Origin: a virus
Direction: 5' to 3' (one strand)
Virus record (IMG/VR): IMGVR_UViG_3300048997_000130
Coordinates: 64,001 to 128,000 of that record
DNA: 64,000 nucleotides
This document shows, piece after piece, positions 112 to 30,242 of the stretch. Positions within the stretch are counted from its first letter, which is position 1, and each line of letters starts with the position of its first letter. The notes beneath the pieces were generated by a model that was not told the origin of the DNA, ran no database searches, and saw only the letters and a program-made list of their open reading frames with translations. A program made the position numbers and the translations under genes.

Positions 112-3100
112 TCAACTGCATCCCGTAGTATTTCCACAGCTACTACATAAATAGCAACTCCCGCATCTGCGAGTAATCGATCCACAATTGTTACAAGGTG
201 GAGCATCAATATTCATCTCATTATTAGGAGATGATGATAATTCAGAAGCCGGGATTGCCGTAGGAGTTATGGACTCCGGAGTAGTAGTTGTATTCCCGTA
301 AGCTTTATCCAAACCAGAATTTTTCCCAGAAAAATAAGTCAAATCGATATATTTAAATATATAGTCATATAGACTATCTGTAAATCGAATCTTAGGATTA
401 CCCGTATATCCAGATGGTTCAAATTTCGTATTTACGAAACAACGCACCAATTTTTCGAGTGGAACCCCGTGCTGAATAGAAATACTAAGAAGTTTAGTAA
501 AACTATCCACCAAACCACCCATGGTGGACCCAATTTTCCCTAATCGCACAAATACTTCGCCGGGAGATCCGTCATCATATTCACCAACAATAATATACCC
601 AGTATGTCCTGCTATATTAAATTTATGACGCCGACTATGTGAATCTATAGGCATTTTGCGTCTATCTGTCACACGGACTTCTCGTATGACTTCCCGAACA
701 GTTTCCTTAATGCCTGATCCGGATTCCTCTGAAAAACGATTTTTAGTCTTTAGAGGTTGTGATTTCTTGCATCCGTCTCTATATAAAGCTATACATTTGA
801 GACCGAGTTCCCAACCGATTTTATATAAATCTGCAATTTCTTCCGGAGAAGCTGTTGTTGGTAAATTTACAGTCTTGCTTTGAGCACATGTAATGAGCGG
901 CTGAATAGCCGCCATCATTTTTAAATGCCCAAGCGGAGGAACGCAACGACCTGATGGTCCGGAAGCCATAGCACAATCAAATATCGGTAAATGTTCTGAT
1001 AGAAGTCCTGGAGCACCTTCAATGAATGAATTTTCCTCTAGATATTCACAAATCCCTTGAATAACCGGCTCTGAATATCCAAGATTGACGAGTGCGGCCT
1101 TCACAGACCCATTCACAAGTTTCATAACACCGCCACCAACAAGCGATTTATATGAAACTAAAGCAAATGCTGGTTCAATCCCTGTCGTATTCATCCCCAT
1201 AAGGAATGAAATCGTATTATGCGACACGAATCCATTGGCAATATATGTAACATTCCCAGGGACTGATATATCATAAGTAAGTTGACGGCCTTGCGATTCC
1301 ACCGTAGTAATTTCATCGTAATAAAAAGAAAGCGCATGTTGCAATCGACCAGCAAAATCAGGAATAAACTTTTCAGCAATATGCCTTGGAATCCGACCAT
1401 CAATATATCTCATTGTAGCGATTTTGCGAAAATCATGACCTATCGGACACACTTCATTAAATAATTCTTCATCAAGATAAATATAATCTCGAGCCCATTC
1501 AGTTTTCCCAAGCACTTTATCAGCCTTACGCGAACATGTAAAACCAACACGTTCCATGAACACACTAGTGAAGTTCCGAGATGTTACCGTTAAACGATAA
1601 ACAGGTTTATCACTATAACCGCCCGTCTGTATATCAAATCTTGTTGGAATCCCAACAGCCAATAACATAGTTTGCACATCACGAATGAAAGCTTCTGATT
1701 TGTTCGTGAGAGATGGTAATCCGTTGGTTACCGAACCATCACAAGTGAATAAACCTCGCAAATAAGCCCCGTATGCTCGCTTATCATTTGTAGCAAGAAT
1801 CGCATCGGGAACATGAGCTTCGAGATGGTCTATTACTTCGATTTTTGCAAATCCAGAAATTGACCACCAAGTTTTGATTTGTGTAGAATTCAAACATAAT
1901 GATATACAGTTATCAGCTGACGTAATAGTTGGATCTTTTCCGAAAAGCTCACGAATGAATCCAGCGCAACGCTCGCGCGCGTCACAATCTTGAGCGTCGA
2001 ATGCAAATCGTAGGCCTTTATGATGCGTCGAACCGTTGGCCGCAAATAATCCACACAATTCCGCCAAACGAATATCGACAATGTTTGGAATTCTAACGCC
2101 TCTATCATAATTCGGGACTAGAGAAGCAGGTAATTTCGGTAACGAAATTTGACGACTCTCGCCGAACAGTTGATTCATACTCAACGGAACAACATCTCCT
2201 TCTTTCAAAGCATCAAAACGGCGCCATTCCCATTGTCCATTCACAATAACTTTGATTTGATGCTTTGGGGTCCCGCGAAGTTGGAATCCACGATCAGTAG
2301 TCACGCCAATAATATCATCTTCACCATTTACATAAAATTGTGTAGCTTGACGTGGTCCAGCATCTGTTTGAACCATGAATTCTACATCTTGCCATTTTTC
2401 ACCATCAGGATTCCCGAGATCTTCAATTCGAATAAGTCCAAGATCTGTTGCGATAAGCGAACCTGCGATAAGGCATCCGAGTGGGGCCTGCAGACTAGCT
2501 TGTGATATACTGAATCCATGGCGCTCACCGAGTTTAATTACTTCTTCCCAAACACTATCCGATAAAGCGCAAACATCATCACCCAATGGATCAAAAGTCC
2601 CTAAATTCCAGCGTTTAGAAATATTCCGGTTGGCTTCTCGATGCATATGCATAATATTCAACATTGCATCGCGATTTTTTTCAAATTCCGAAAATGCAGC
2701 CGTCCGAGCAGCTAATTTGGCTGACCATAAATAAGCATAACCAGTCATGAGACTTGCTAACCGAGCAGCAATAGCACGGCCTTCATCCGAATTATAAGCA
2801 TGACCAAGTTGCATGAGCAGCGATCCAAGATCGCCGTAATTGAGACCGATCGGTCTCAATGCCAACGAATTCTTAGTAATAGAGTCTGTCGGATAGTCGG
2901 CTTTGGCAATAATAGCATTTTGCGCGGTCACGAAAACGCGGACCGAATGCATGAATCGCTGCGTATTTAATTTGCCATCATCAAACATTCGAGTCAAATT
3001 GATAGCACATAAATTGCATGCAGTGTTATCGACATGAGCAAATTCAGCACAGGGATTCGTAGCTCGGATCCTCCCACTACTTGGTGTGGTGTGCCAACGA

Positions 3101-4212
3101 TTTATAGTGTCGGTAAATTGGACACCAGGATCACCGCACATCCATGCAGCCTGTGCTATTTCAGTCCACAGTTCGCGCGCTTTATATTCATGAACAACTT
3201 CTCCAGTTAATCGTTCACGCGTCTTCCACATCCCATCATCAACAACCGCCTGCATAAAAGCGTCGGGAATGCTCACTGAATGATTGGCATTTTGGAATGA
3301 TACCCATTTATATGCAGAATTAGGATCGTCGTAAGCTGCACTATATCCACATTCAATAAGATCATGCGCTCGTTTTTCTTCTATAGCTTTACATCGAATA
3401 AATCCAGGACGCCCATCCATGGTCTCTAAAATATCTGGATGATCCATATCCATAATAGCCATTTTAGCCGCATTCCGAGTGGAACCACCGCTCTTCATGG
3501 CCTTGGCGCCCTTATCAAGCTCCTCCATCCATCCAAGGGGGCCACATACATACGCCCCTGAAGAGAGTTTTTCATATGATGAGCGAATTTTAGATAAATT
3601 GGCTCCTGAACCAGAGCCACCAGCAAATATAATTTTTTCAGATTTGCTGAATTCCATGATTGAATCCAACGTATCATCAACCCCAGAAATAAAACAAGCC
3701 GATGCGGCTTGGCGTCTATCTGGAATACCTACATTAAACCAGACTGGAGAATTGAATGCACCATATTGATGAAGGAGCGCATAAATTAATTCGGCTTCAT
3801 AAATTTCAGCATCTTTAGGAGAATTAAAATATTGTTGCTCATCAGCCCATTGAGTTAGCGTACGAGCAACTCGGCTAAAAAGTTGTTTAGCCGAGGTTTC
3901 TTTCACTCCATTTACCATTCTAAAATATTTACTAACTACTACATTAATGGTTGTCTCGTTCCACCAGTCAGGGACTTCGACATCGAGTTGTTCGAATACC
4001 TTCGAACCATCAGCTCGAACCATCTTAGAATCAACTATTTTCCATTTAATACTGTCAAAAGGATGGACTCCTTCTTGTGTAAAGATACGAGTCCATTTAC
4101 CAGATTCCCTGCCTTCTTTAGAAACACCAATAATGGAATCAAATACTTTCCCTACAGGTGAATCTGATCCGGATTCGGTGTTTTTATTAAGAGCGGCGGA
4201 TCCGTTTGACAT
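112..4212 (-). CDS. nrdJ: Class II (B12-dependent) ribonucleotide reductase with intein, C-terminal TSCPD-like domain and Zn ribbon
   Basis: FNSPVWFN, SACF, TNPCAEF active-site loop, GLNYGDLG, QAPLG|TISFLMG..GIEP, ALYRDGCK, and C-terminal CxxC..CxxC..GCS. Confidence 0.95.
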   Translation of the reverse strand: MSNGSAALNKNTESGSDSPVGKVFDSIIGVSKEGRESGKWTRIFTQEGVHPFDSIKWKIVDSKMVRADGSKVFEQLDVEVPDWWNETTINVVVSKYFRMVNGVKETSAKQLFSRVARTLTQWADEQQYFNSPKDAEIYEAELIYALLHQYGAFNSPVWFNVGIPDRRQAASACFISGVDDTLDSIMEFSKSEKIIFAGGSGSGANLSKIRSSYEKLSSGAYVCGPLGWMEELDKGAKAMKSGGSTRNAAKMAIMDMDHPDILETMDGRPGFIRCKAIEEKRAHDLIECGYSAAYDDPNSAYKWVSFQNANHSVSIPDAFMQAVVDDGMWKTRERLTGEVVHEYKARELWTEIAQAAWMCGDPGVQFTDTINRWHTTPSSGRIRATNPCAEFAHVDNTACNLCAINLTRMFDDGKLNTQRFMHSVRVFVTAQNAIIAKADYPTDSITKNSLALRPIGLNYGDLGSLLMQLGHAYNSDEGRAIAARLASLMTGYAYLWSAKLAARTAAFSEFEKNRDAMLNIMHMHREANRNISKRWNLGTFDPLGDDVCALSDSVWEEVIKLGERHGFSISQASLQAPLGCLIAGSLIATDLGLIRIEDLGNPDGEKWQDVEFMVQTDAGPRQATQFYVNGEDDIIGVTTDRGFQLRGTPKHQIKVIVNGQWEWRRFDALKEGDVVPLSMNQLFGESRQISLPKLPASLVPNYDRGVRIPNIVDIRLAELCGLFAANGSTHHKGLRFAFDAQDCDARERCAGFIRELFGKDPTITSADNCISLCLNSTQIKTWWSISGFAKIEVIDHLEAHVPDAILATNDKRAYGAYLRGLFTCDGSVTNGLPSLTNKSEAFIRDVQTMLLAVGIPTRFDIQTGGYSDKPVYRLTVTSRNFTSVFMERVGFTCSRKADKVLGKTEWARDYIYLDEELFNEVCPIGHDFRKIATMRYIDGRIPRHIAEKFIPDFAGRLQHALSFYYDEITTVESQGRQLTYDISVPGNVTYIANGFVSHNTISFLMGMNTTGIEPAFALVSYKSLVGGGVMKLVNGSVKAALVNLGYSEPVIQGICEYLEENSFIEGAPGLLSEHLPIFDCAMASGPSGRCVPPLGHLKMMAAIQPLITCAQSKTVNLPTTASPEEIADLYKIGWELGLKCIALYRDGCKKSQPLKTKNRFSEESGSGIKETVREVIREVRVTDRRKMPIDSHSRRHKFNIAGHTGYIIVGEYDDGSPGEVFVRLGKIGSTMGGLVDSFTKLLSISIQHGVPLEKLVRCFVNTKFEPSGYTGNPKIRFTDSLYDYIFKYIDLTYFSGKNSGLDKAYGNTTTTPESITPTAIPASELSSSPNNEMNIDAPPCNNCGSITRRCGSCYLCSSCGNTTGCS
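1216..2475 (-). mobile_element. Intein (420 aa) with LAGLIDADG homing-endonuclease domain in nrdJ
   Basis: Starts CLIAGSLI and ends YIANGFVSHN, followed by Thr. It interrupts the APxG|TIS motif. LAGLIDADG-like blocks LCGLFAANGS and YLRGLFTCDGSV are present. Confidence 0.93.
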
Positions 4213-5113
4213 TTTTTGCCTCCTCGGACAAGCGAATTATTTCTATTTCTAGGCCAGTGCGTGCAGAGCCGTCGCCACGTTTATGGAGGATATCCAAATC
4301 ACATAGCATATTATAACTTGTAATTAAAGAGTCCATAGTCCATAAACCTAAACGCGACTCGAACATTTTCTTACACACAAAAGGATGAATGTTCAATAAC
4401 TTGGCAATCTCTGTTTGAGATATACCATGCGATGCAGCATATTCCATTCGTAACTGTTGAATGACATGACGCTGCAGATATGCTAATATCCATCCTGTCT
4501 CATCCATCCGCTCTTGGAGTGCGTCCAAGTAGGCTAATGCTTTGGCAGGATGTCCTTCGCATATCGAATCTATAACTTCCTTCGGAGTAAGATCTGCGGA
4601 AAAACACAATACGGATTTAGCATCTGCTGGTGTTATAACACCAGCAGATGCTATAACCGATAGTTTCATTATCTCAGACGAAATCTTCCGCAGACTCTTC
4701 CCTGAGCTCACAAAAAGCGCACTGGCAACGCAACTTAGATCGATATTAAGCCTTTCGCCTTCTTTTATGATCCAAGGTAGGTATTCATTCTTATCGTCAT
4801 ACGCTTTCAATTTTGAAAAATTATGAATGCGTTTGGCTCGAGAATCTGTTAATTTAATTTTCGGAGTCGAAATTATTATTAATATATCAGATTCCCCAGC
4901 TGGTAGTTGCACAGGGATTTCTTTAGCATTCCATAAAATGAAAACATGACTAGAATGATTGAAAGGTTTGATTGAAATATCATCTAAGTATTGATTTAAA
5001 TTTATCGATGCGTCATATTCAGAAGATTCAAGCAGACTACACGAGACTTCGTCCTTAACTGCTCGTTCTTTCAGGAAATCTTCATCACCATTAATAAGGA
5101 TTAATTGCGGCAC
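4187..5113 (-). CDS. holA: DNA polymerase III delta subunit-like clamp-loader protein
   Basis: N-terminal LILINGDEDFL, central WIIKE..L.ID, EIMKL, and C-terminal HPFVCKK..D..K.G..LE pattern typical of HolA. Confidence 0.78.
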   Translation of the reverse strand: MPQLILINGDEDFLKERAVKDEVSCSLLESSEYDASINLNQYLDDISIKPFNHSSHVFILWNAKEIPVQLPAGESDILIIISTPKIKLTDSRAKRIHNFSKLKAYDDKNEYLPWIIKEGERLNIDLSCVASALFVSSGKSLRKISSEIMKLSVIASAGVITPADAKSVLCFSADLTPKEVIDSICEGHPAKALAYLDALQERMDETGWILAYLQRHVIQQLRMEYAASHGISQTEIAKLLNIHPFVCKKMFESRLGLWTMDSLITSYNMLCDLDILHKRGDGSARTGLEIEIIRLSEEAKNVKRIRRS

Positions 5114-5916
5114 GGATCAAAACATCTCGATTGAAGATTAATACAAATCCTATGCCAATGTAATAAAATGTTTGCTGATGGAATCGATTCTAATAGAGCC
5201 GCAAATTTTAAAAACATAATAGCTCCAGGAATATGTTCCTTATTGATAGCAATAGCATGAACCGCCTGCTTGATAACTAATGAAATAGCATCACGTTCAG
5301 GACCATATTCATTTTTATGTTCACAAATAACTGTTGGAATAGGACACAATATTGAATCCATTCCGCCGGTTATCATCTTTTGAACAGTTATATTTAACTC
5401 TGCAAAATTTGAACAGTTAATGGTTCCAAATAATCCAGGGCGACCATAACAAAGATTAATTTTCAAGGCGTCCTCAGATTCAAAAAGGACTGCCATCTCT
5501 GCTGGGTTTAAAGTAGTCCAAGTAATGATTCTTTCGAATCGAGATCGTAATGGAGAAATTGTTGAATCAATATCTGAAGTAACAAAAATGATACGGGAAG
5601 CCGATGGTGTATCTTCACATAATTTTAAATATACATTCTGTGCAGGTTCATTTAATCGATGTAGATTATTGATAACAGCTATTCGAGTAGATCCGAATAT
5701 AGAACGATGAGAAAAAAATTCTCGAACTTCTCGAGCCCCTTCAATACCTTCAGGGACTAATAAATAATCAGTAGATTCAAAATGGTCTTTCAGATATTCC
5801 TGAATGAATGAGTGTTTTCCGATATAATCAGGTCCCGATAATACTAAACTCCGTATATTATTCGGAATTAGATTTTGGATAGTCTGTTGTTGCGAGCAGA
5901 GATTGCCGTGAATCAT
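5101..5916 (-). CDS. holB: DNA polymerase III delta-prime-like clamp-loader subunit
   Basis: LVLSGPDYIGK (Walker A-like), VINNLHRLNEPAQNVYLKLCEDTP, IIFVTS..TISPLRSR (SRC-like). Confidence 0.82.
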   Translation of the reverse strand: MIHGNLCSQQQTIQNLIPNNIRSLVLSGPDYIGKHSFIQEYLKDHFESTDYLLVPEGIEGAREVREFFSHRSIFGSTRIAVINNLHRLNEPAQNVYLKLCEDTPSASRIIFVTSDIDSTISPLRSRFERIITWTTLNPAEMAVLFESEDALKINLCYGRPGLFGTINCSNFAELNITVQKMITGGMDSILCPIPTVICEHKNEYGPERDAISLVIKQAVHAIAINKEHIPGAIMFLKFAALLESIPSANILLHWHRICINLQSRCFDPCRN

Positions 5917-11049: not shown

Positions 11050-11835
11050 ATGATGAAAAAAAGCAGCAAGAAAACCAAGAAACCGAAAAAAGCTTCGGAT
11101 TTGAAACGAGAAAAAGATAATAAACAAAAATTGCTTGATAAAGCCATTGAAGACTGCGTCTACAGGGCTTCATCTTCCAAAGAACGTGAATATTTCCGAG
11201 CAATGATAGTGGAACTCGTTAAGAATAATGTTATCCCTAAAGAATTATTAGACGCAGTCCCCGCTCGTCCAGAAGATACTCAGAAGACTCGTTTTGAGCA
11301 GTTATATGATATGGCTTTGTTCCTAGCATTTCCTGGATATGATCATGAGACTCTAAGGAAATTATTAGGTCCAGAGTCAGAAGATCTCGAAGATTTGAAA
11401 ATCTGGAGGGTGATGTTGCCCCCTAAATTCAAAATAACTCATGTGCTCATTCGGGCAACTGATTTTCGACAAGCATTCGCTTTAGGGTGTGATTATGCCT
11501 GTCGAATGTCCCTGAGGCTTTATAGAAAGATTCCTGTTGACTTAACTATCCGTATTCAATTCGTGAGTCTAAGAAGTGTTCGAAGGATGCTCGAGCTCCG
11601 TTGGGCTAATCGAATGCAGTTGCGACGGAAATATAGACTCGTTGGCCGTGAATTCACCAGTAAAGAACTCACAGGGGCTCGAATGGTGGCTTTAGGGAGT
11701 CCGACCCATCCGGAATATAATATATTCAAATATGCGGAATGGAGAGATCTAATTAAGATTTTGAAGAGTGGGAATCAAATAAGAATTTCTTCGGTCGAAA
11801 CTGAAACCTTCCGACCAACCATCAATGATGATTAA
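11050..11835 (+). CDS. Hypothetical protein with Lys-rich N-terminus
   Basis: 261-aa ORF, first gene of the plus-strand block. Confidence 0.75.
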   Translation: MMKKSSKKTKKPKKASDLKREKDNKQKLLDKAIEDCVYRASSSKEREYFRAMIVELVKNNVIPKELLDAVPARPEDTQKTRFEQLYDMALFLAFPGYDHETLRKLLGPESEDLEDLKIWRVMLPPKFKITHVLIRATDFRQAFALGCDYACRMSLRLYRKIPVDLTIRIQFVSLRSVRRMLELRWANRMQLRRKYRLVGREFTSKELTGARMVALGSPTHPEYNIFKYAEWRDLIKILKSGNQIRISSVETETFRPTINDD

Positions 11836-12020: not shown

Positions 12021-13202
12021 ATGCAAGCTGGCAAATTCAATATAATAATCGACGGGTTTTGGGGTTCTTCAGGAAAAGGTAAGATATCTACATACCTCGC
12101 CGATCAATATAATTCTACATTCATATCATCGGCCAATTATCCGAATGCAGGTCATAGTGCTGTGTTTGAGAACGGCGTCAAATTCGTTGCCAAAGCCATT
12201 CCGACTTCAGCCATTCTCAAGAAGGTCAAAGGCACAGACATACAGTGTTTCCTTTCTCCTGGATCTGGATTCAATCCCATACAACTCTTAAAAGAATGGG
12301 AAGAATGCGACAGACCAAACATATTTATCCACGATCGAGCCTCAATAATGACTTCAGAACATGCACTTCGGGAGCGAGAAGGTTCGGATTCGACCAAACA
12401 CATTGCCTCCACCATGCAAGGTTCTGGAGTCGCTATAGCAGATAAAATAATGCGTAGACCGGATGTTCAATTAGCAAAGAATTGGGATCCGAAAGTGACC
12501 CTTCATGATAATGATCATCTTGAATCTGTGTTTGGGGATGATCTCGAGCGGATCCGAATTACGGATGGAATGGAATTCAGGAATTTAGTTCATTCTATGG
12601 TTAATAACGGGCAAACTTGGCTCCATGAAGGTTCCCAAGGTTATTCGTTGTCCATAGATCATGGGTCACAATATCCATATACTACGAGCAGGAACTGCGG
12701 AGTTCAAGCCGCCATGGATTATATGGCGATCCCACCTCAAATAGTTGGTGATGTATATTTGAATCTTCGTACTTATCCTATTCGAGTAGGGAATGTTGTT
12801 GAAAATGGACAACAACTCGGATACTCAGGTGATTTTTATCCGGATTGCACGGAACTCACTTGGAAAGAAGTTGCCCGGCGAGCTGGAATGCCTGATGAAG
12901 AAGCTCAAATGCTAGCTGAACGCGAGCGGACTACAGTGACAAAACGAATTAGAAGGGTTTGTAATTTTTCGTATCTTGGATTACAAGATGCCGTGAGAAC
13001 GAATGGTGCGACCAAACTTTCCATGAATTTTATTCAATATATTGATTGGTCTGACGCTGGTTTACGAGGAGGAAAAGAAGCTTTCAAGAAGCTTTCCAAG
13101 AAAAGCAGAACTTTCATTGATAAAGTCGAAGAAGTTGCTGGAGTCCCGGTTGTTCTTATTGGAACAGGCGCCAGTCATGAAGAAATCATTAATTTGCTGT
13201 AA
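12021..13202 (+). CDS. purZ: Adenylosuccinate-synthetase family protein with PurZ signature (probable diaminopurine-pathway synthetase)
   Basis: DGFWGSSGKGK (Ser replaces the PurA catalytic Asp of GDEGKG), PNAGHS, IAST..GSG, EGSQGYSLSIDHG.YPYTTSR, RTYPIRVGN, ERTTVTKRIRRV, and NFIQY instead of TKLD. Confidence 0.78.
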   Translation: MQAGKFNIIIDGFWGSSGKGKISTYLADQYNSTFISSANYPNAGHSAVFENGVKFVAKAIPTSAILKKVKGTDIQCFLSPGSGFNPIQLLKEWEECDRPNIFIHDRASIMTSEHALREREGSDSTKHIASTMQGSGVAIADKIMRRPDVQLAKNWDPKVTLHDNDHLESVFGDDLERIRITDGMEFRNLVHSMVNNGQTWLHEGSQGYSLSIDHGSQYPYTTSRNCGVQAAMDYMAIPPQIVGDVYLNLRTYPIRVGNVVENGQQLGYSGDFYPDCTELTWKEVARRAGMPDEEAQMLAERERTTVTKRIRRVCNFSYLGLQDAVRTNGATKLSMNFIQYIDWSDAGLRGGKEAFKKLSKKSRTFIDKVEEVAGVPVVLIGTGASHEEIINLL

Positions 13203-13865
13203 ATGGCAAAATCTAAGCATGGGCATTATGTTGGAAATAAACCAAGCCCAGAATATTATACGTGGCGTTCTATTAAAGCAAGATGTTTAAATCCAAAACA
13301 TCATAATTATGATGTTTATGGTGGAGCTGGAATAATTTTAGATGAAGTCTGGGCATCTAATTTTGAAATATTCTTACGTGATATCGGGCTTCGTCCTTCA
13401 CGGCATCATACTTTAGATAGAATCAAAAATGATTTAGGATATGTTCCAGGCAATGTTAGATGGGCAACTCGACACATTCAAAATCGGAATCGCAGTGATA
13501 ATCATTGGATTACGTTTAATAATGAGACATTATGTCTCAAAGATTGGGCTAATAAATTAGGTTGTACGCCCAATGCAATACGTACAAGGGTATTACGTGG
13601 TTGGTCTTGGGAAGCTGCGGTTAGTACTCTACCCAATCCAAAATTACAAACCAAAAAGAAAATATATAATCAATTAGAGACAATCGATAAAGATATTAAG
13701 GTACATATTACACAACAAGCAATAAAATTATATAATGGCGGACAATTGATTCGATCTATAACGAAACATGAATTAAATAATGATAAATCGTTGTCGAATT
13801 CGATATCCAATATTATTGATATAATTCGTGTTTTAGAATCAAATACTATAGCTACGCCGATTTGA
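13203..13865 (+). CDS. Free-standing HNH-type homing endonuclease
   Basis: EYYTWRSIKARCLNP..YGGAGI..HTLDRIKNDLGYVPGNVRWAT..QNRNR plus a C-terminal DNA-binding segment. Confidence 0.85.
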   Translation: MAKSKHGHYVGNKPSPEYYTWRSIKARCLNPKHHNYDVYGGAGIILDEVWASNFEIFLRDIGLRPSRHHTLDRIKNDLGYVPGNVRWATRHIQNRNRSDNHWITFNNETLCLKDWANKLGCTPNAIRTRVLRGWSWEAAVSTLPNPKLQTKKKIYNQLETIDKDIKVHITQQAIKLYNGGQLIRSITKHELNNDKSLSNSISNIIDIIRVLESNTIATPI

Positions 13866-14415: not shown

Positions 14416-14975
14416 TATGGTGACTTCTTTTTGCGTTTTAAATGAATACCAATTTGATCGGTATTCTCAATCATATATTTATGAACTGAATTGAAATATC
14501 CAGCTATCGGATGTGCTGCATCTTTTCGCATTAATCGTTCTAAAATCAACATATTTTCATAATCGGAAAACAACCAATTTTCAGTTATCGGGACTCCGGG
14601 ACTAATTTGACTCCAAACATTTCCAAATGGCAGCATTATTAATACGTATTCAGTCTTTTGGAAATGCGGAGGACTAGAAGTCGGTATGAATTCTTCACGG
14701 CGTTTAACCGAAAAAAAGACTCCAGGAGGTAAATCTATTCCGTTAGGAGTTTGAGTTACCCATCGTTTAATACTTACCCACTTAACTTCAGGGGTTTTTA
14801 TACCTGACAGTTTTCGACATTTTAAAGAACAACTATATAACGCTGATGGTGATAGTTCACATGTCCATGGTCGGAAGTCCGATGGTAAATCGGTATTTAC
14901 ATGTAGTTCATTAAACCAAAAAACTCCAAGCGATGTTATGCGTTGTTGTAATGTTGGTTTTTGTTCTTCATCCAT
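14415..14975 (-). CDS. Hypothetical protein
   Basis: Start moved to MDEEQK (14975) to avoid overlap with the divergent thyX. Confidence 0.65.
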   Translation of the reverse strand: MDEEQKPTLQQRITSLGVFWFNELHVNTDLPSDFRPWTCELSPSALYSCSLKCRKLSGIKTPEVKWVSIKRWVTQTPNGIDLPPGVFFSVKRREEFIPTSSPPHFQKTEYVLIMLPFGNVWSQISPGVPITENWLFSDYENMLILERLMRKDAAHPIAGYFNSVHKYMIENTDQIGIHLKRKKKSP

Positions 14976-14991
14976 AGAAAGACTCCATAAA

Positions 14992-16335
14992 ATGACGCAT
15001 AGATCAGCCAATATCTTCTGTCTTACCGATTCAGAAGGGAGATTATTATCTCCAGCTGTACAAGCTACTGTACTAGCAAAATATTCAAGATCCCCATTAT
15101 CAGCTCAAGAATTACTTGCGCAGTTAACTGAAGAAGAAGCTGATAAATTCCAAAGCAAATGGGTTGTTGGATATGGTCATGACTCCGTTGCAGAATTGGC
15201 AACAATACCAATATGTTTAGAAGGTGTATCTATCATAGCTTCCAAGATTCTAGAGTCTTGGCCGCGCGCGGCTTATTCTGAAAAAAGCACTCGATATCAA
15301 ATTTTTTCGAAGGATTCGTTTGTTACGCCTCCTGGCGCTCCTGATACAATGAAACAGTTCGCCGGACGATTTTACGAAGCTTATGCTGCATTAAATGTTC
15401 GAATGATTCGTAAAATCGCCGAACTTGTAGGTGATGATCCGGAAAATCCTAAAACAACTACTAAGGCACGAGCGTTCGATAACGTCCGTTATTTGCTGCC
15501 AGCCGGAACTGGCACTAACGTGGCTGCTGCAATGAACTTACGTGACGTGCGCGACATGATAACAACGTTGCGCGGTCATACCAATAGTGAATTCAAAGCC
15601 ATTGGTGAAGGAGTTTATACTGCTGCCATGAGGATGGCTCCGGCACTCATCAAATATACTGAACCCGATACTTTTTCATTACCAGTTAAAAGCTTAGGAG
15701 CAATAAACTCGGCATTCTCATATGAACATCCACAGCCGTGCGTCAATATTTATAATTCAGAATGCATATCTGATCCTCAAATGGAAATGTCCATTTTTAA
15801 AGCCGCTGTCCAAGATAGACATACTATGAATTGGGAAACATTTAATCAACACATGTTATCTCGACCTTCTCATGCTGGAGTCCCAGATATTTTTAAAACT
15901 ATCAAAATCTCGTTCGAAATTATTATGGATTATGGCGCATTCCGCGATTTACAAAGGCATCGGCGTTGTGATCAATTCACAGAACCCTTCCGATCCGATT
16001 ATGGATATGTGGTCCCTGAAGATATAGTGGGAACCGATTTGGAACCGGATTATCGGTCAGCCATGGAATCTCTATCGTCATATCAAGACGAACGCGTAGT
16101 CCACGATCCGGATTGGTTCCAATATATGATTCCGCTTGGATATTTACATAGATCAATCTTTCAAATGGATTTGAAAGAACTCTATTACATAACTGAACTT
16201 CGTACTAAACCACAGGGACATATTTCGTATAGAAGAATTGCTTATGAAATATATCTGTTAGCACAACAGCGATTCCCGGAGCTTATGCAATGGTGTCGTG
16301 TTGTTAAGCCCGAATCTGTAGGTTTACATACATGA
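14992..16335 (+). CDS. thyX: Flavin-dependent thymidylate synthase-like protein, tandem two-domain ThyX form
   Basis: AKYSRS, GYGHDSVAELA, EKSTRYQ, RYLLP, DYGAFRDLQRHR, ELRT..QGH.SYR; start moved to MTHRSA. Confidence 0.85.
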   Translation: MTHRSANIFCLTDSEGRLLSPAVQATVLAKYSRSPLSAQELLAQLTEEEADKFQSKWVVGYGHDSVAELATIPICLEGVSIIASKILESWPRAAYSEKSTRYQIFSKDSFVTPPGAPDTMKQFAGRFYEAYAALNVRMIRKIAELVGDDPENPKTTTKARAFDNVRYLLPAGTGTNVAAAMNLRDVRDMITTLRGHTNSEFKAIGEGVYTAAMRMAPALIKYTEPDTFSLPVKSLGAINSAFSYEHPQPCVNIYNSECISDPQMEMSIFKAAVQDRHTMNWETFNQHMLSRPSHAGVPDIFKTIKISFEIIMDYGAFRDLQRHRRCDQFTEPFRSDYGYVVPEDIVGTDLEPDYRSAMESLSSYQDERVVHDPDWFQYMIPLGYLHRSIFQMDLKELYYITELRTKPQGHISYRRIAYEIYLLAQQRFPELMQWCRVVKPESVGLHT

Positions 16336-18138: not shown

Positions 18139-18732
18139 TTAATCTATAATTAATTCTCGGAGTCTGGATTTTATGTATTCCATTCGTTTTTCATAATCCA
18201 AGTGATTTTTACGATATACTCGAATTATATTTTGCGATAAATTTGCTTGCTCGAAATCTTGATTCCAAGGTTGATCTAACATCAACACTAGACCACGAGG
18301 TCTCCATTCTAACCATCGAGTGATATATGGAGGCCAATCATCAAACAAAACTTTCCCATATTGACCACCTTTATCTTGTGTAATAGTTACACTAGCATCA
18401 GGGAGATGTTCCATACACCATTCATATTTTTCAGTCCACGCTGTACTACACCGCTTAGGTCCTTTAGTTAAGACAACCAAAATAAATTGCAATTCTCTGA
18501 ATAAATCAATTATTTTTATGCCTTCTTCAATGAGAGGAAGACTTTTCCAATATCCAGGATTATTTTTAATCAACTCCATTCGGCGCTCAATATAATCAGG
18601 AGCTCCTTCTATCTTGGTAACTGGTGATTCAAATGGAGAACGCAGTTCTTCCAATTTAGCTAACATAGTGGAATTATAATCCACCATGGTCCCATCCATA
18701 TCAATCAAAGCGATGAGTTCAGATTTTTTCAT
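18139..18732 (-). CDS. HAD-family 5'(3')-deoxyribonucleotidase (NT5C-like)
   Basis: ALIDMDGTMVD (motif I), LTK, WTEKYEWC, VLFDDWP (motif IV). Confidence 0.85.
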   Translation of the reverse strand: MKKSELIALIDMDGTMVDYNSTMLAKLEELRSPFESPVTKIEGAPDYIERRMELIKNNPGYWKSLPLIEEGIKIIDLFRELQFILVVLTKGPKRCSTAWTEKYEWCMEHLPDASVTITQDKGGQYGKVLFDDWPPYITRWLEWRPRGLVLMLDQPWNQDFEQANLSQNIIRVYRKNHLDYEKRMEYIKSRLRELIID

Positions 18733-20269: not shown

Positions 20270-21181
20270 ATGGAATTGCCCAAACATTTTATGGTATGTA
20301 TATCAGGATATTCTGGAACTGGAAAAGACGAGGTTGCCAAAAGATTAATAGCGAAATTCGGAGCTTTCCAAACAGGACTCGCAGATCCAGCCAAGCGCCA
20401 TATGGCGGATTTATATGGATTTAGTGAAGACCAATTATTCGGTCCTTCGGCTTCTCGAAATGCCGGAGATCTTAGATATCCTAAAGATTCATTTTTTGAT
20501 AAGAATTTGACAGTATCTGAATTCTGTTCTGAGAATTATCCGAAAGATTTGATCGGAAACTTAGAACCAGGAGTTATTTATTGGCAAAGTTCTGGTCGCG
20601 GATTCCATCTTCCTAATAAACCGGCGCTTCCATATATACCACTACGTTTAGGAAGTGGTATAACACTAATTCCGGATAGGCATCCATATTTTTGGCTATC
20701 GCCTCGTGAAGCATTACAAAAATACTGTGAAATCATGAATTCAATGTATTTAGATACCTGGATTCGTAAAGGTATTGAAATCCATAAAAAATTAGCAGAG
20801 TTAGATACTAATAACAAAATATTTACTTATAAATATTCGCCTATGCTTGGGTTAGAATTCAATACTTTAGGTACACGACATCGAGCGGTTGGGAATAGTC
20901 CCATCATCACTTGTTTTGCTGATTTCCGGCATAAGCACGAAATTAATTTAACTCGCAAGACTACAGATTTGATTCCTGTCCTTGTTCGGATTAAAAGGCC
21001 TTCTGTTCCCGATCCACCATATGATCATAGATCAGAAGTTGAACAATCAACCATTCCAGATTCAGTATTCGATTTTATAATCAATAATGATAGCACATTG
21101 GAGAATCTATGGACCAATATCGATAATATGGTGGATGATTTCACAGCATCTCAATGGGAATCTTCAGGAGACACACTATGA
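20270..21181 (+). CDS. Deoxynucleoside monophosphate kinase (T4 gp1-like)
   Basis: CISGYSGTGKDEVA P-loop, LADPAK, SPREALQKYC, ADFRHKHE, DHRSE, IINND. Confidence 0.85.
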   Translation: MELPKHFMVCISGYSGTGKDEVAKRLIAKFGAFQTGLADPAKRHMADLYGFSEDQLFGPSASRNAGDLRYPKDSFFDKNLTVSEFCSENYPKDLIGNLEPGVIYWQSSGRGFHLPNKPALPYIPLRLGSGITLIPDRHPYFWLSPREALQKYCEIMNSMYLDTWIRKGIEIHKKLAELDTNNKIFTYKYSPMLGLEFNTLGTRHRAVGNSPIITCFADFRHKHEINLTRKTTDLIPVLVRIKRPSVPDPPYDHRSEVEQSTIPDSVFDFIINNDSTLENLWTNIDNMVDDFTASQWESSGDTL

Positions 21182-22164
21182 AACTTACCGCTGATAATTT
21201 AGTACCATTTACCCACCAAGCTCTTGAACAAATAGAAATAATTTATACGCACGCATCATGTCCGGATGGTACATCAGCTGCAATGATAGCAGCTGCAGCC
21301 TTTGCATCGATTGGGAAATATCCAGCGATTAAGACCATTCAATATGGGACGGAAGAACATTTTCAATTGCTTCCAACTCCCAATACTCTATTTATTGATA
21401 TTACGCCACATATTAATAACTGGAAATCATGGGAATCATATTCACCCATAATTCTCGATCACCATATAACTGCTCGAGATGTTACGTTAGGATTAAATGG
21501 GATTTATGGCGGGACTGATGATTCAGGAGCAACGTTAGCTTATAAATATGTTATGCTACAGTTATGTCCGTTTATTGCTGAAGAATGGAAAGAATTTGCA
21601 TATCTATCGATGGTCAGAGATACTTGGAAAAAGGACCTATCTGAATGGCCGAAGGCTCAAGCTCTGTCTCAAGCTCTGATATTTTATAATATCAATGAAT
21701 TGATTGAAAAAGTTCGTAATGGAACCATTGATTTTGATCCATTTTATTCATTAGGATATTTATTGATTAAGCGTGCACTAGATAAAGCTGAATTATTAGC
21801 CAAAGGCGCTTCATTGGCTTACTTAGTTGTCGATGATCATAAATACAAAATCGGATTTTTCAATTGCACTGAAAAATTGATATCTGAAACTGGAAATCAT
21901 TTGATAGAAGCGCACGATTGTGACATGGCTGTCGGTTATTTTTATTTACATGAAGATAATTGTGACAAAGTTGTCGTATCTTTGCGTTCTAAAGCTGGCG
22001 GAGACATTGCCGTAAATGTCATAACAGAACAGTTCGGGGGCGGTGGACATGCGGCTGCAGCAGGTTTTTCGTTGAAAGATTCAACTACTTTAAGTCTTAA
22101 AAATTTACAAGATTTGATTATTGGAAAGCTTTATAACCTCCTTGTTGAAAATCAAAGGAAATGA
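21178..22164 (+). CDS. DHH/DHHA1 phosphoesterase
   Basis: HASCPDG, FIDI, ILDHH, VSLRS, GGGGHAAAAGF; AGGAG RBS before MKLT. Confidence 0.88.
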   Translation: MKLTADNLVPFTHQALEQIEIIYTHASCPDGTSAAMIAAAAFASIGKYPAIKTIQYGTEEHFQLLPTPNTLFIDITPHINNWKSWESYSPIILDHHITARDVTLGLNGIYGGTDDSGATLAYKYVMLQLCPFIAEEWKEFAYLSMVRDTWKKDLSEWPKAQALSQALIFYNINELIEKVRNGTIDFDPFYSLGYLLIKRALDKAELLAKGASLAYLVVDDHKYKIGFFNCTEKLISETGNHLIEAHDCDMAVGYFYLHEDNCDKVVVSLRSKAGGDIAVNVITEQFGGGGHAAAAGFSLKDSTTLSLKNLQDLIIGKLYNLLVENQRK

Positions 22165-29904: not shown

Positions 29905-30242
29905 GTTCGCATGATTTGGCGAATTATTGAAGATTTTTCACAGTCTTTGCATTGTATTGGATGTAAAAATATTTCTTCAGGAGCGACGCCATGGAAGACA
30001 GCGTCAGTGAAGCGTTTATTGTCCTCCGAACATGCTTCGAAAGCGCATCGGAACAAATGGATGGAGTGGCGTTCTTTGTGCAAATCCACGTTCGACAATG
30101 TGAATGATTTTCCATCGCGTGATGTGAAACCTTGGAAACCTGCATGGAAATCTATTATGGGAAAGACATACAAGCCAGTTTGACGAATGTGTTGCGAGAC
30201 TGCGTCGAGGAGCGCTCGTATCATGACTGCATTATGTGCCAA
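29901..30242 (-). CDS. Small Cys protein with shared C-terminal tag
   Basis: IQCKDCEKSSIIRQIMRT*. Confidence 0.7.
   Translation of the reverse strand: MAHNAVMIRALLDAVSQHIRQTGLYVFPIIDFHAGFQGFTSRDGKSFTLSNVDLHKERHSIHLFRCAFEACSEDNKRFTDAVFHGVAPEEIFLHPIQCKDCEKSSIIRQIMRT

Follow-up and report, generated by a model that had tools for sequence, protein, structure and literature searches.

The window analyzed here, a 64,000-base stretch (bases 64001-128000) of the 196,676-bp contig of IMG/VR record IMGVR_UViG_3300048997_000130, carries a gene which, assigned by its residues and its phylogeny, is a real PurZ-type gene on a deep branch. The purZ gene is a core gene of a huge-phage lineage, and by analogy with characterized phages this lineage probably runs the known Z-DNA pathway, with a PurZ-type enzyme and with virion DNA largely substituted by 2-aminoadenine (Z). 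In small phages, PurZ serves the replacement of adenine by Z in DNA. The contig is rated about 44% complete and is a fragment of an uncultured phage genome of about 400 kb. The open reading frame is intact, starts with ATG and encodes a protein of 393 amino acids (coordinates here and below are those of the window unless stated otherwise):

12021..13202, plus strand: PurZ-type (Ser-type adenylosuccinate-synthetase-like) gene, 393 aa, with Ser16, Thr304 and Phe337/Gln339/Tyr340

In the family searches, the protein matched Pfam PF00709 (Adenylsucc_synt) with an E value of 1e-35 and PHROG 1211 with an E value of 5e-58, both well past chance. The NCBIfam PurZ model NF038379, which was made from the classic small-phage PurZ clade, gave the protein 195 bits and did not reach its cut-off of 300, and the archaeal PurA model NF003295 gave it 190 bits and did not reach its cut-off of 368. 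The two models scored the protein almost alike, and every NCBIfam PurA model stayed far under its cut-off. The sequence scores against PDB entries were also tied, with 111 bits for the Pyrococcus PurA and 109 bits for the PurZ of S-2L and phiVC8, and in a fold search with an AF2 model of the enzyme (pLDDT 69) PurZ and the Pyrococcus PurA ranked about equally. More than 100 metagenomic proteins were 62-69% identical to the window protein, and many of them were encoded on phage contigs of 200-445 kb.

For the analysis of the active site, the window protein was aligned with the PurZ of phiVC8, S-2L, Bm1, PMBT28 and an Acinetobacter phage, the PurZ0 of Archimedes and Glenn, archaeal PurA and E. 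coli PurA. The three motifs named in the preliminary description are all present: GSSGKG at residues 15-20 (nt 12063-12080), TTVTKRIRR at residues 304-312 (nt 12930-12956) and NFIQY at residues 336-340 (nt 13026-13040). As it had also stated, Ser16 aligns with Asp13 of E. coli PurA, and NFIQY aligns with K331-D333 of the E. coli TKLD. Ser at the PurA Asp13 position has been found in 100% of phage PurZ (PMC12884076). Among 20 sampled homologues that are 63-70% identical to the window protein, WGSSGKG, TTVTKRxRR and NFxQY were all invariant. The catalytic residues of the superfamily are all kept (the equivalents of E. coli K16, N38, H41, T129, R143, Q224, T239, V273, T301 and R305).

On this alignment, the window protein has the PurZ state at Ser16, Thr304, Phe337, Tyr340, Gln339, Tyr273, Trp281 and Pro253. 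Thr304 corresponds to phiVC8 T262 and S-2L T273, a site at which PurAs have Gly. Gln339 corresponds to S-2L Q308, with loss of the guanine-reading Asp, and Phe337 and Tyr340 correspond to phiVC8 F295 and Y298; the Phe and Tyr of the ATP-type nucleotide site stack on adenine. S23, T273 and Q308 of S-2L PurZ have been described as PurZ-specific substrate contacts (PMC8342488), and all three are identical in the window protein. S14, T262, F295 and Y298 of phiVC8 PurZ have been named PurZ-specific (metaGPA preprint), and all of these are matched as well. As far as can be read from the aligned positions, every functionally characterized PurZ-specific residue is present in the window protein.

In the phylogenetic analysis, a search of 1.8 billion cluster representatives returned 264 clusters at an E value of 1e-30 or lower. 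Among the nearest 150 (50%-identity cluster representatives), all members that bear the N terminus had Ser at the Asp13 position. Species-representative genomes were scanned with a DNA pattern, which provided Asp-type short PurA outgroups from archaea and the candidate phyla radiation (CPR) and also returned many Ser-type genes in bacterial genomes. We then built a quick IQ-TREE phylogeny of 93 rows (LG+C20 PMSF), rooted on bacterial PurA, with SH-aLRT supports. In this tree the archaeal Asp-type PurA was sister (99) to a single clade of all Ser-type enzymes (99), in which PurZ0 and cellular GSEGKG forms were the first branches. A 61-row NFxxY clade (99), with PurZ0 outside it, contained the classic PurZ (S-2L, phiVC8, Bm1 and PMBT28), the BpsS-140 and MaF61 groups and a huge-phage clade (98), and the 29 rows of this last clade included the window protein. 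When the huge-phage clade was moved beside the Asp-type PurAs, the AU test gave a delta lnL of 52 and a p value of 0.0496 for a group that was named after the tree had been seen, and the rejection of the Asp-type placement is only borderline. The preliminary description had called the product a PurZ-signature synthetase and had proposed a phylogeny with PurA, PurZ and PurZ0 as a check. The residues and the phylogeny agree on a PurZ-type synthetase rather than a PurA: as placed by the tree, the window protein is inside the Ser-type clade, on the ATP-type side in the NFxxY clade with classic PurZ, and apart from PurA and PurZ0.

Two other features of the family were seen in these searches. Short Ser-type PurA-like genes (GSEGKG, and in a few cases GGEGKG) occur in many bacterial genomes and metagenome-assembled genomes and group with PurZ0; their carriers include L128, L130, L136, L139, L143 (Novosphingobium flavum) and L157 (Devosia). 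In several purZ homologues, extra in-frame segments, each about 1.2 kb long, interrupt the gene around residues 47-54 and around residue 221; they are apparently inteins at conserved sites, and the products are 750-1200 aa long (L045, L014, L046 and L048; P0121-P0123, P0132 and P0136-P0137).

A second huge-phage group (L004, L025, L032, L035-L040 and L052) has enzymes that are 40-46% identical to the window protein, and no DatZ-like gene. In this group an NDT-family (nucleoside 2-deoxyribosyltransferase) gene is located two genes upstream of purZ, a TIM-barrel (AP_endonuc_2-like) gene is located downstream of purZ, and each genome has one or two dUTPase-like genes. Judged by these gene assignments, the helper set of the second group resembles that of PurZ0 phages.

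We analyzed the genes around purZ by synteny and profile searches. In 19 related loci, a conserved block comprises the ribonucleotide reductase (RNR), two clamp-loader genes, several uncharacterized genes, a 261-aa gene, purZ and ThyX. The following features of the window, besides purZ, were assigned in this region:

112..4212, minus strand: class II ribonucleotide reductase with a LAGLIDADG intein (Pfam), in the same conserved block by synteny
4187..5916, minus strand: genes for two clamp-loader subunits that resemble Pol III delta and delta' (PF21694 and PF13177)
11050..11835, plus strand: conserved 261-aa gene, immediately before purZ and in the same orientation, as in the 19 related loci
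13203..13865, plus strand: free-standing HNH homing-endonuclease gene (PHROG 3377, E=2e-43) that abuts the purZ stop
14938..16335, plus strand: ThyX, flavin-dependent thymidylate synthase (Pfam Thy1, E=3e-33), a neighbor in 17 loci and part of the same nucleotide-metabolism block
18139..18732, minus strand: NT5C-like 5'-deoxynucleotidase of the HAD family (PF06941, 30 bits, over the cut-off)
20270..21181, plus strand: weakly dNMP-kinase-like protein (PF21448, 25 bits for a cut-off of 27.1, N-terminal P-loop only)

The 261-aa protein had no match in Pfam, PHROG or NCBIfam, and its AF2 model (pLDDT 71) had no fold match in the PDB; it may be an unrecognized partner of the pathway. The HNH gene is missing from the position after purZ in most relatives. 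The NT5C-like deoxynucleotidase has a possible role in the purine pool. The dNMP-kinase-like gene is conserved in 13 related loci, and we infer only tentatively that its product is a candidate kinase of dZMP. The replication genes had earlier been read as Pol III-type. Of such a system only the clamp-loader subunits were found, and Pol III alpha had no match on the contig or in four complete relatives, which carry a family A polymerase instead.

A DHH/DHHA1 phosphoesterase gene (21154-22164, plus strand) was also seen a few kilobases downstream of purZ; like the NT5C-like and dNMP-kinase-like proteins, its product would add to the nucleotide-pool enzymes. From position 30000 to 64000 of the window (about 92-152 kb of the contig), the G+C content rises from 36-40% to 45-55%, and there are no open reading frames longer than 300 aa. 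Stop-codon recoding was considered for this half of the window and rejected: reading TGA as Trp lengthens some of the reading frames, and no single recoding gives long open reading frames throughout.

We searched the window and the rest of the 196,676-bp contig for helper genes of the Z-DNA pathway. No DatZ, MazZ or DpoZ was found in either, so that the earlier statement that none was recognizable in the window also holds for the full contig. Searches of the contig for YfbR-like, MazG, DUF550, dUTPase, NDT and PolA gave no match. The only HD protein on the contig (contig positions 161077-161364) resembles the tail of a CCA-adding enzyme and was rejected as a DatZ.

In the complete relatives, the result was different. 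All five relatives whose genomes are complete with terminal repeats (363-436 kb) encode a DatZ-family HD protein of about 220 aa. This protein scored 68-80 bits on PHROG 7076 (dATP triphosphohydrolase), on which the characterized S-2L DatZ scored 79 bits and the Bm1 DatZ 75 bits, and 65 bits on the Pfam YfbR-like domain, by which DatZ is defined in the metaGPA study. Its R-Y-S-S motif is the Tyr20/Ser22 variant, which is prevalent on dZ-enriched contigs (metaGPA preprint). In the four loci scanned with Pfam, the gene next to the datZ-like gene encodes a MazG-like protein with an intact ExxE...ExxD; its match to MazZ of S-2L, a (d)GTP pyrophosphohydrolase, was weak, with an hhalign probability of 46%. 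A family A polymerase gene is located about 10 kb from the datZ-like gene. This polymerase was considered as a DpoZ and rejected, as it scored 57 and 35 bits for cut-offs of 500 and 350 and was 21-24% identical to phiVC8 DpoZ.

The distances between these genes account for their absence here. In the complete relatives, purZ and the pair of datZ-like and mazG-like genes are 160-235 kb apart, with no compact cluster, and the present contig ends 76 kb from purZ on one side and 121 kb from it on the other. In four relatives, about 120 open reading frames lie no more than 10 kb from datZ; three of them matched one short open reading frame on the contig, which is probably a mobile domain, and the others had no homologue here. 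We infer that the helper genes are missing because the datZ block lies beyond the ends of the 44%-complete contig, in the part of the genome that was not sampled. Four other fragments are the mirror image, with a DatZ-like gene and no purZ. In G007, a relative that is rated complete, purZ was found with no DatZ-like match. The co-occurrence of purZ and the DatZ-like gene is drawn from one clade only. The preliminary description had supposed non-canonical accessory enzymes; the complete relatives argue against this, as they have a DatZ-family HD hydrolase with an adjacent MazG-like gene in a region that is missing here.

Other purine genes were found in some of the relatives. PurB passed its cut-off of 326 in G001 (474 bits; 81000-84200, L219) and in G005 (418 bits; 350300-353300, L220), and in G006 an IMPDH/GMP-reductase-family gene (L083:2660-3646) adjoins the MazG-like gene. 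These PurB and IMPDH-like genes suggest a wider control of the purine pool. In two complete relatives, a Peptidase_C15 (pyroglutamyl peptidase) gene is located just upstream of the DatZ-like gene (L081:682-1329 and L084:691-1338).

By analogy with the PurZ of phiVC8 and S-2L, the PurZ-type enzyme would use dGMP and L-aspartate, with ATP or dATP, to produce N6-succino-2-amino-2'-deoxyadenylate. An adenylosuccinate lyase, the host's or in some relatives the phage's own, would then convert this product to dZMP, and kinases would convert dZMP to dZTP. The predicted products of the lineage of 360-440 kb phages would also include a DatZ-family dATP hydrolase, a MazG-like pyrophosphohydrolase and a family A polymerase. 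Since the complete relatives encode these last three proteins, the virion DNA of the lineage is most likely largely Z-substituted.

On the other hand, the enzyme may have PurZ chemistry in a genome that is only partly or not Z-substituted, with dZ perturbing the nucleotide pool or giving a low-level modification, a possible reason being that the phage does not remove dATP efficiently or has no Z-selective polymerase. The contig without DatZ, the purZ of G007 without a DatZ-like match and the relatives' PolA, which is not DpoZ, are in line with this reading. However, the pair of DatZ-like and MazG-like genes is present in all five complete terminal-repeat relatives (the MazG-like gene by Pfam in four loci), S-2L makes full Z-DNA without DpoZ, and the triad alone brings Z into E. 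coli DNA (PMC8342488). We consider a partly substituted or unsubstituted genome unlikely.

The choice of substrate was weighed by the residue that corresponds to E. coli R303, which contacts O2' of IMP (PMC8342488). The equivalent residue of the window protein is Arg309, with the Arg retained. This position has Leu in S-2L, PMBT28 and the Acinetobacter phage, Lys in phiVC8 and PurZ0, and Arg in Bm1, whose purZ has an annotated dATP triphosphohydrolase gene (datZ) one gene away. The earlier claim that classic PurZ has Leu here is correct for the first three phages and not for phiVC8 or Bm1. From the same residue, the enzyme had been read as a mosaic of PurZ, PurZ0 and PurA features. That reading is weak because Arg is the commonest state of Ser-type enzymes and is also found in Bm1: of 269 Ser-type proteins, the majority carry TKR[IVL]RR as their aspartate-loop motif, and TKLPRR (S-2L type) is rare. 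A loop insertion after the conserved Val has been reported to crowd C2' (PMC8342488), which would select for deoxyribose, and the alignment has a PurZ-type insertion after Val256 in the window protein. The AF2 model, with a pLDDT below 50 across residues 205-272, is too poor for a reading of the geometry of Arg309 and the loop.

It is quite unlikely that the enzyme uses another purine substrate, either GMP followed by the class II RNR or dIMP or dXMP, to make another product or to reach Z by another route. The retained Arg309, the deep branch that scores under the cut-off of the PurZ model and the RNR and ThyX genes that adjoin purZ would fit such a substrate. Against it, most Ser-type enzymes have Arg at this position, as does the Bm1 PurZ encoded beside datZ; the alignment contains the loop insertion; room for the 2-amino group is made by Ser16 and Thr304, both of which the window protein has; and the dATP-directed helper enzyme of the relatives fits a deoxy pathway. 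We found no evidence favoring a different purine modification. We regard as highly doubtful the particular form of this idea in which the Arg-retaining huge-phage branch accepts GMP, or some other purine monophosphate, and its product enters the deoxy pool through the adjacent class II RNR. If this is true, phages with genomes of about 400 kb would either make a different purine or have a second route to 2-aminoadenine, one that works at the ribonucleotide level.

Although the protein is a member of the PurA superfamily, PurB and IMPDH-like genes occur in some relatives and true PurA genes occur in phage records, an ordinary PurA-like auxiliary metabolic gene that raises AMP synthesis (from IMP, Asp and GTP) during infection is extremely improbable, as an invariant Ser replaces the catalytic Asp13, NFxQY takes the place of the guanine-reading TKLD, no NCBIfam PurA model reaches its cut-off and the protein is inside the Ser-type clade, away from all Asp-type PurAs.

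Z-DNA phages have been described only as siphoviruses and podoviruses (PMC8342488), and the reference genomes compared here are 39-68 kb. No report found in the open literature searched connected jumbo or huge phages with PurZ or 2-aminoadenine. If the lineage is Z-substituted, its genomes of 360-440 kb would far exceed all other natural Z-DNA genomes in size. They would be copied by a clamp loader and a family A polymerase that is not a DpoZ, their pathway genes are dispersed instead of clustered, and the host and ecological range of Z-DNA would be widened. Studies of soil and freshwater viromes that use restriction enzymes or nanopore reads may then make systematic errors with these giant phages. 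The lineage also offers new PurZ variants and DatZ variants of the Tyr20/Ser22 type for synthetic biology.

Compared with the PurZ of phiVC8 and S-2L (DgsS; PDB 6FM1/6FKO/6TNH and 7ODX), the window protein shares the Ser in place of the catalytic Asp, the Thr at the site of contact with the 2-amino group, the NFxxY motif that stacks on adenine, the replacement of the guanine-reading Asp by Gln or Asn and, in the alignment, a loop insertion after Val. It is in the same NFxxY clade of the tree, and these PurZ are among its best fold matches. However, the window protein is only 30-32% identical to them, scores under the NF038379 cut-off and retains Arg309 and a C-terminal GTG segment like that of archaeal PurA. 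The genomes also differ, at about 400 kb compared with about 40-45 kb, and in the relatives 160-235 kb separate purZ from the datZ- and mazZ-type genes, without clustering.

The PurZ of Burkholderia phage Bm1 (PP183292) is among the best phage hits (34% identity) and has the same TKR-V/I-RR loop with Arg and the same RVGN...GYSGD insertion. Bm1 differs in that its enzyme belongs to the classic PurZ subclade and its purZ is in a compact cluster, beside the annotated datZ and a DNA polymerase gene. We know of no enzyme assay of the Bm1 PurZ.

PurZ0 and the window protein are both Ser-type enzymes of the same superclade. PurZ0, however, has GSEAKG and an S/T-M-x-D motif in which the counterpart of E. 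coli D333 is still Asp, whereas the window protein has NFIQY and GSSGKG, and PurZ0 branches outside the NFxxY clade. DutZ/DmtZ helper genes of the PurZ0 type were not found on the contig or in most of the close relatives. PurZ0 reportedly uses GTP. PurZ uses ATP according to the introduction of PMC12884076; in the dutZ/dmtZ section of the same paper, the ATP/GTP preferences of PurZ0 and PurZ seem swapped relative to its own introduction and to the residue pattern described here.

The short archaeal PurA (Pyrococcus horikoshii, PDB 5K7X/2D7U; NF003295) is similar to the window protein in length, architecture and C-terminal segment, scores 111 bits and has Arg at the R303 position. It differs at three sites, with Asp13 present, Gly where the window protein has Thr304 and an Asp that reads guanine, and it belongs to a separate clade that is sister to the Ser-type enzymes. 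The PurA-like protein of the cultured Flavobacterium phage MaF61 (168 kb) is 28% identical to the window protein, has a large extra insertion and TKLPRR, and lies outside the huge-phage subclade, but like the window protein it belongs to the NFxxY clade, with a GSSGKGK P-loop and the motif NFVNY.
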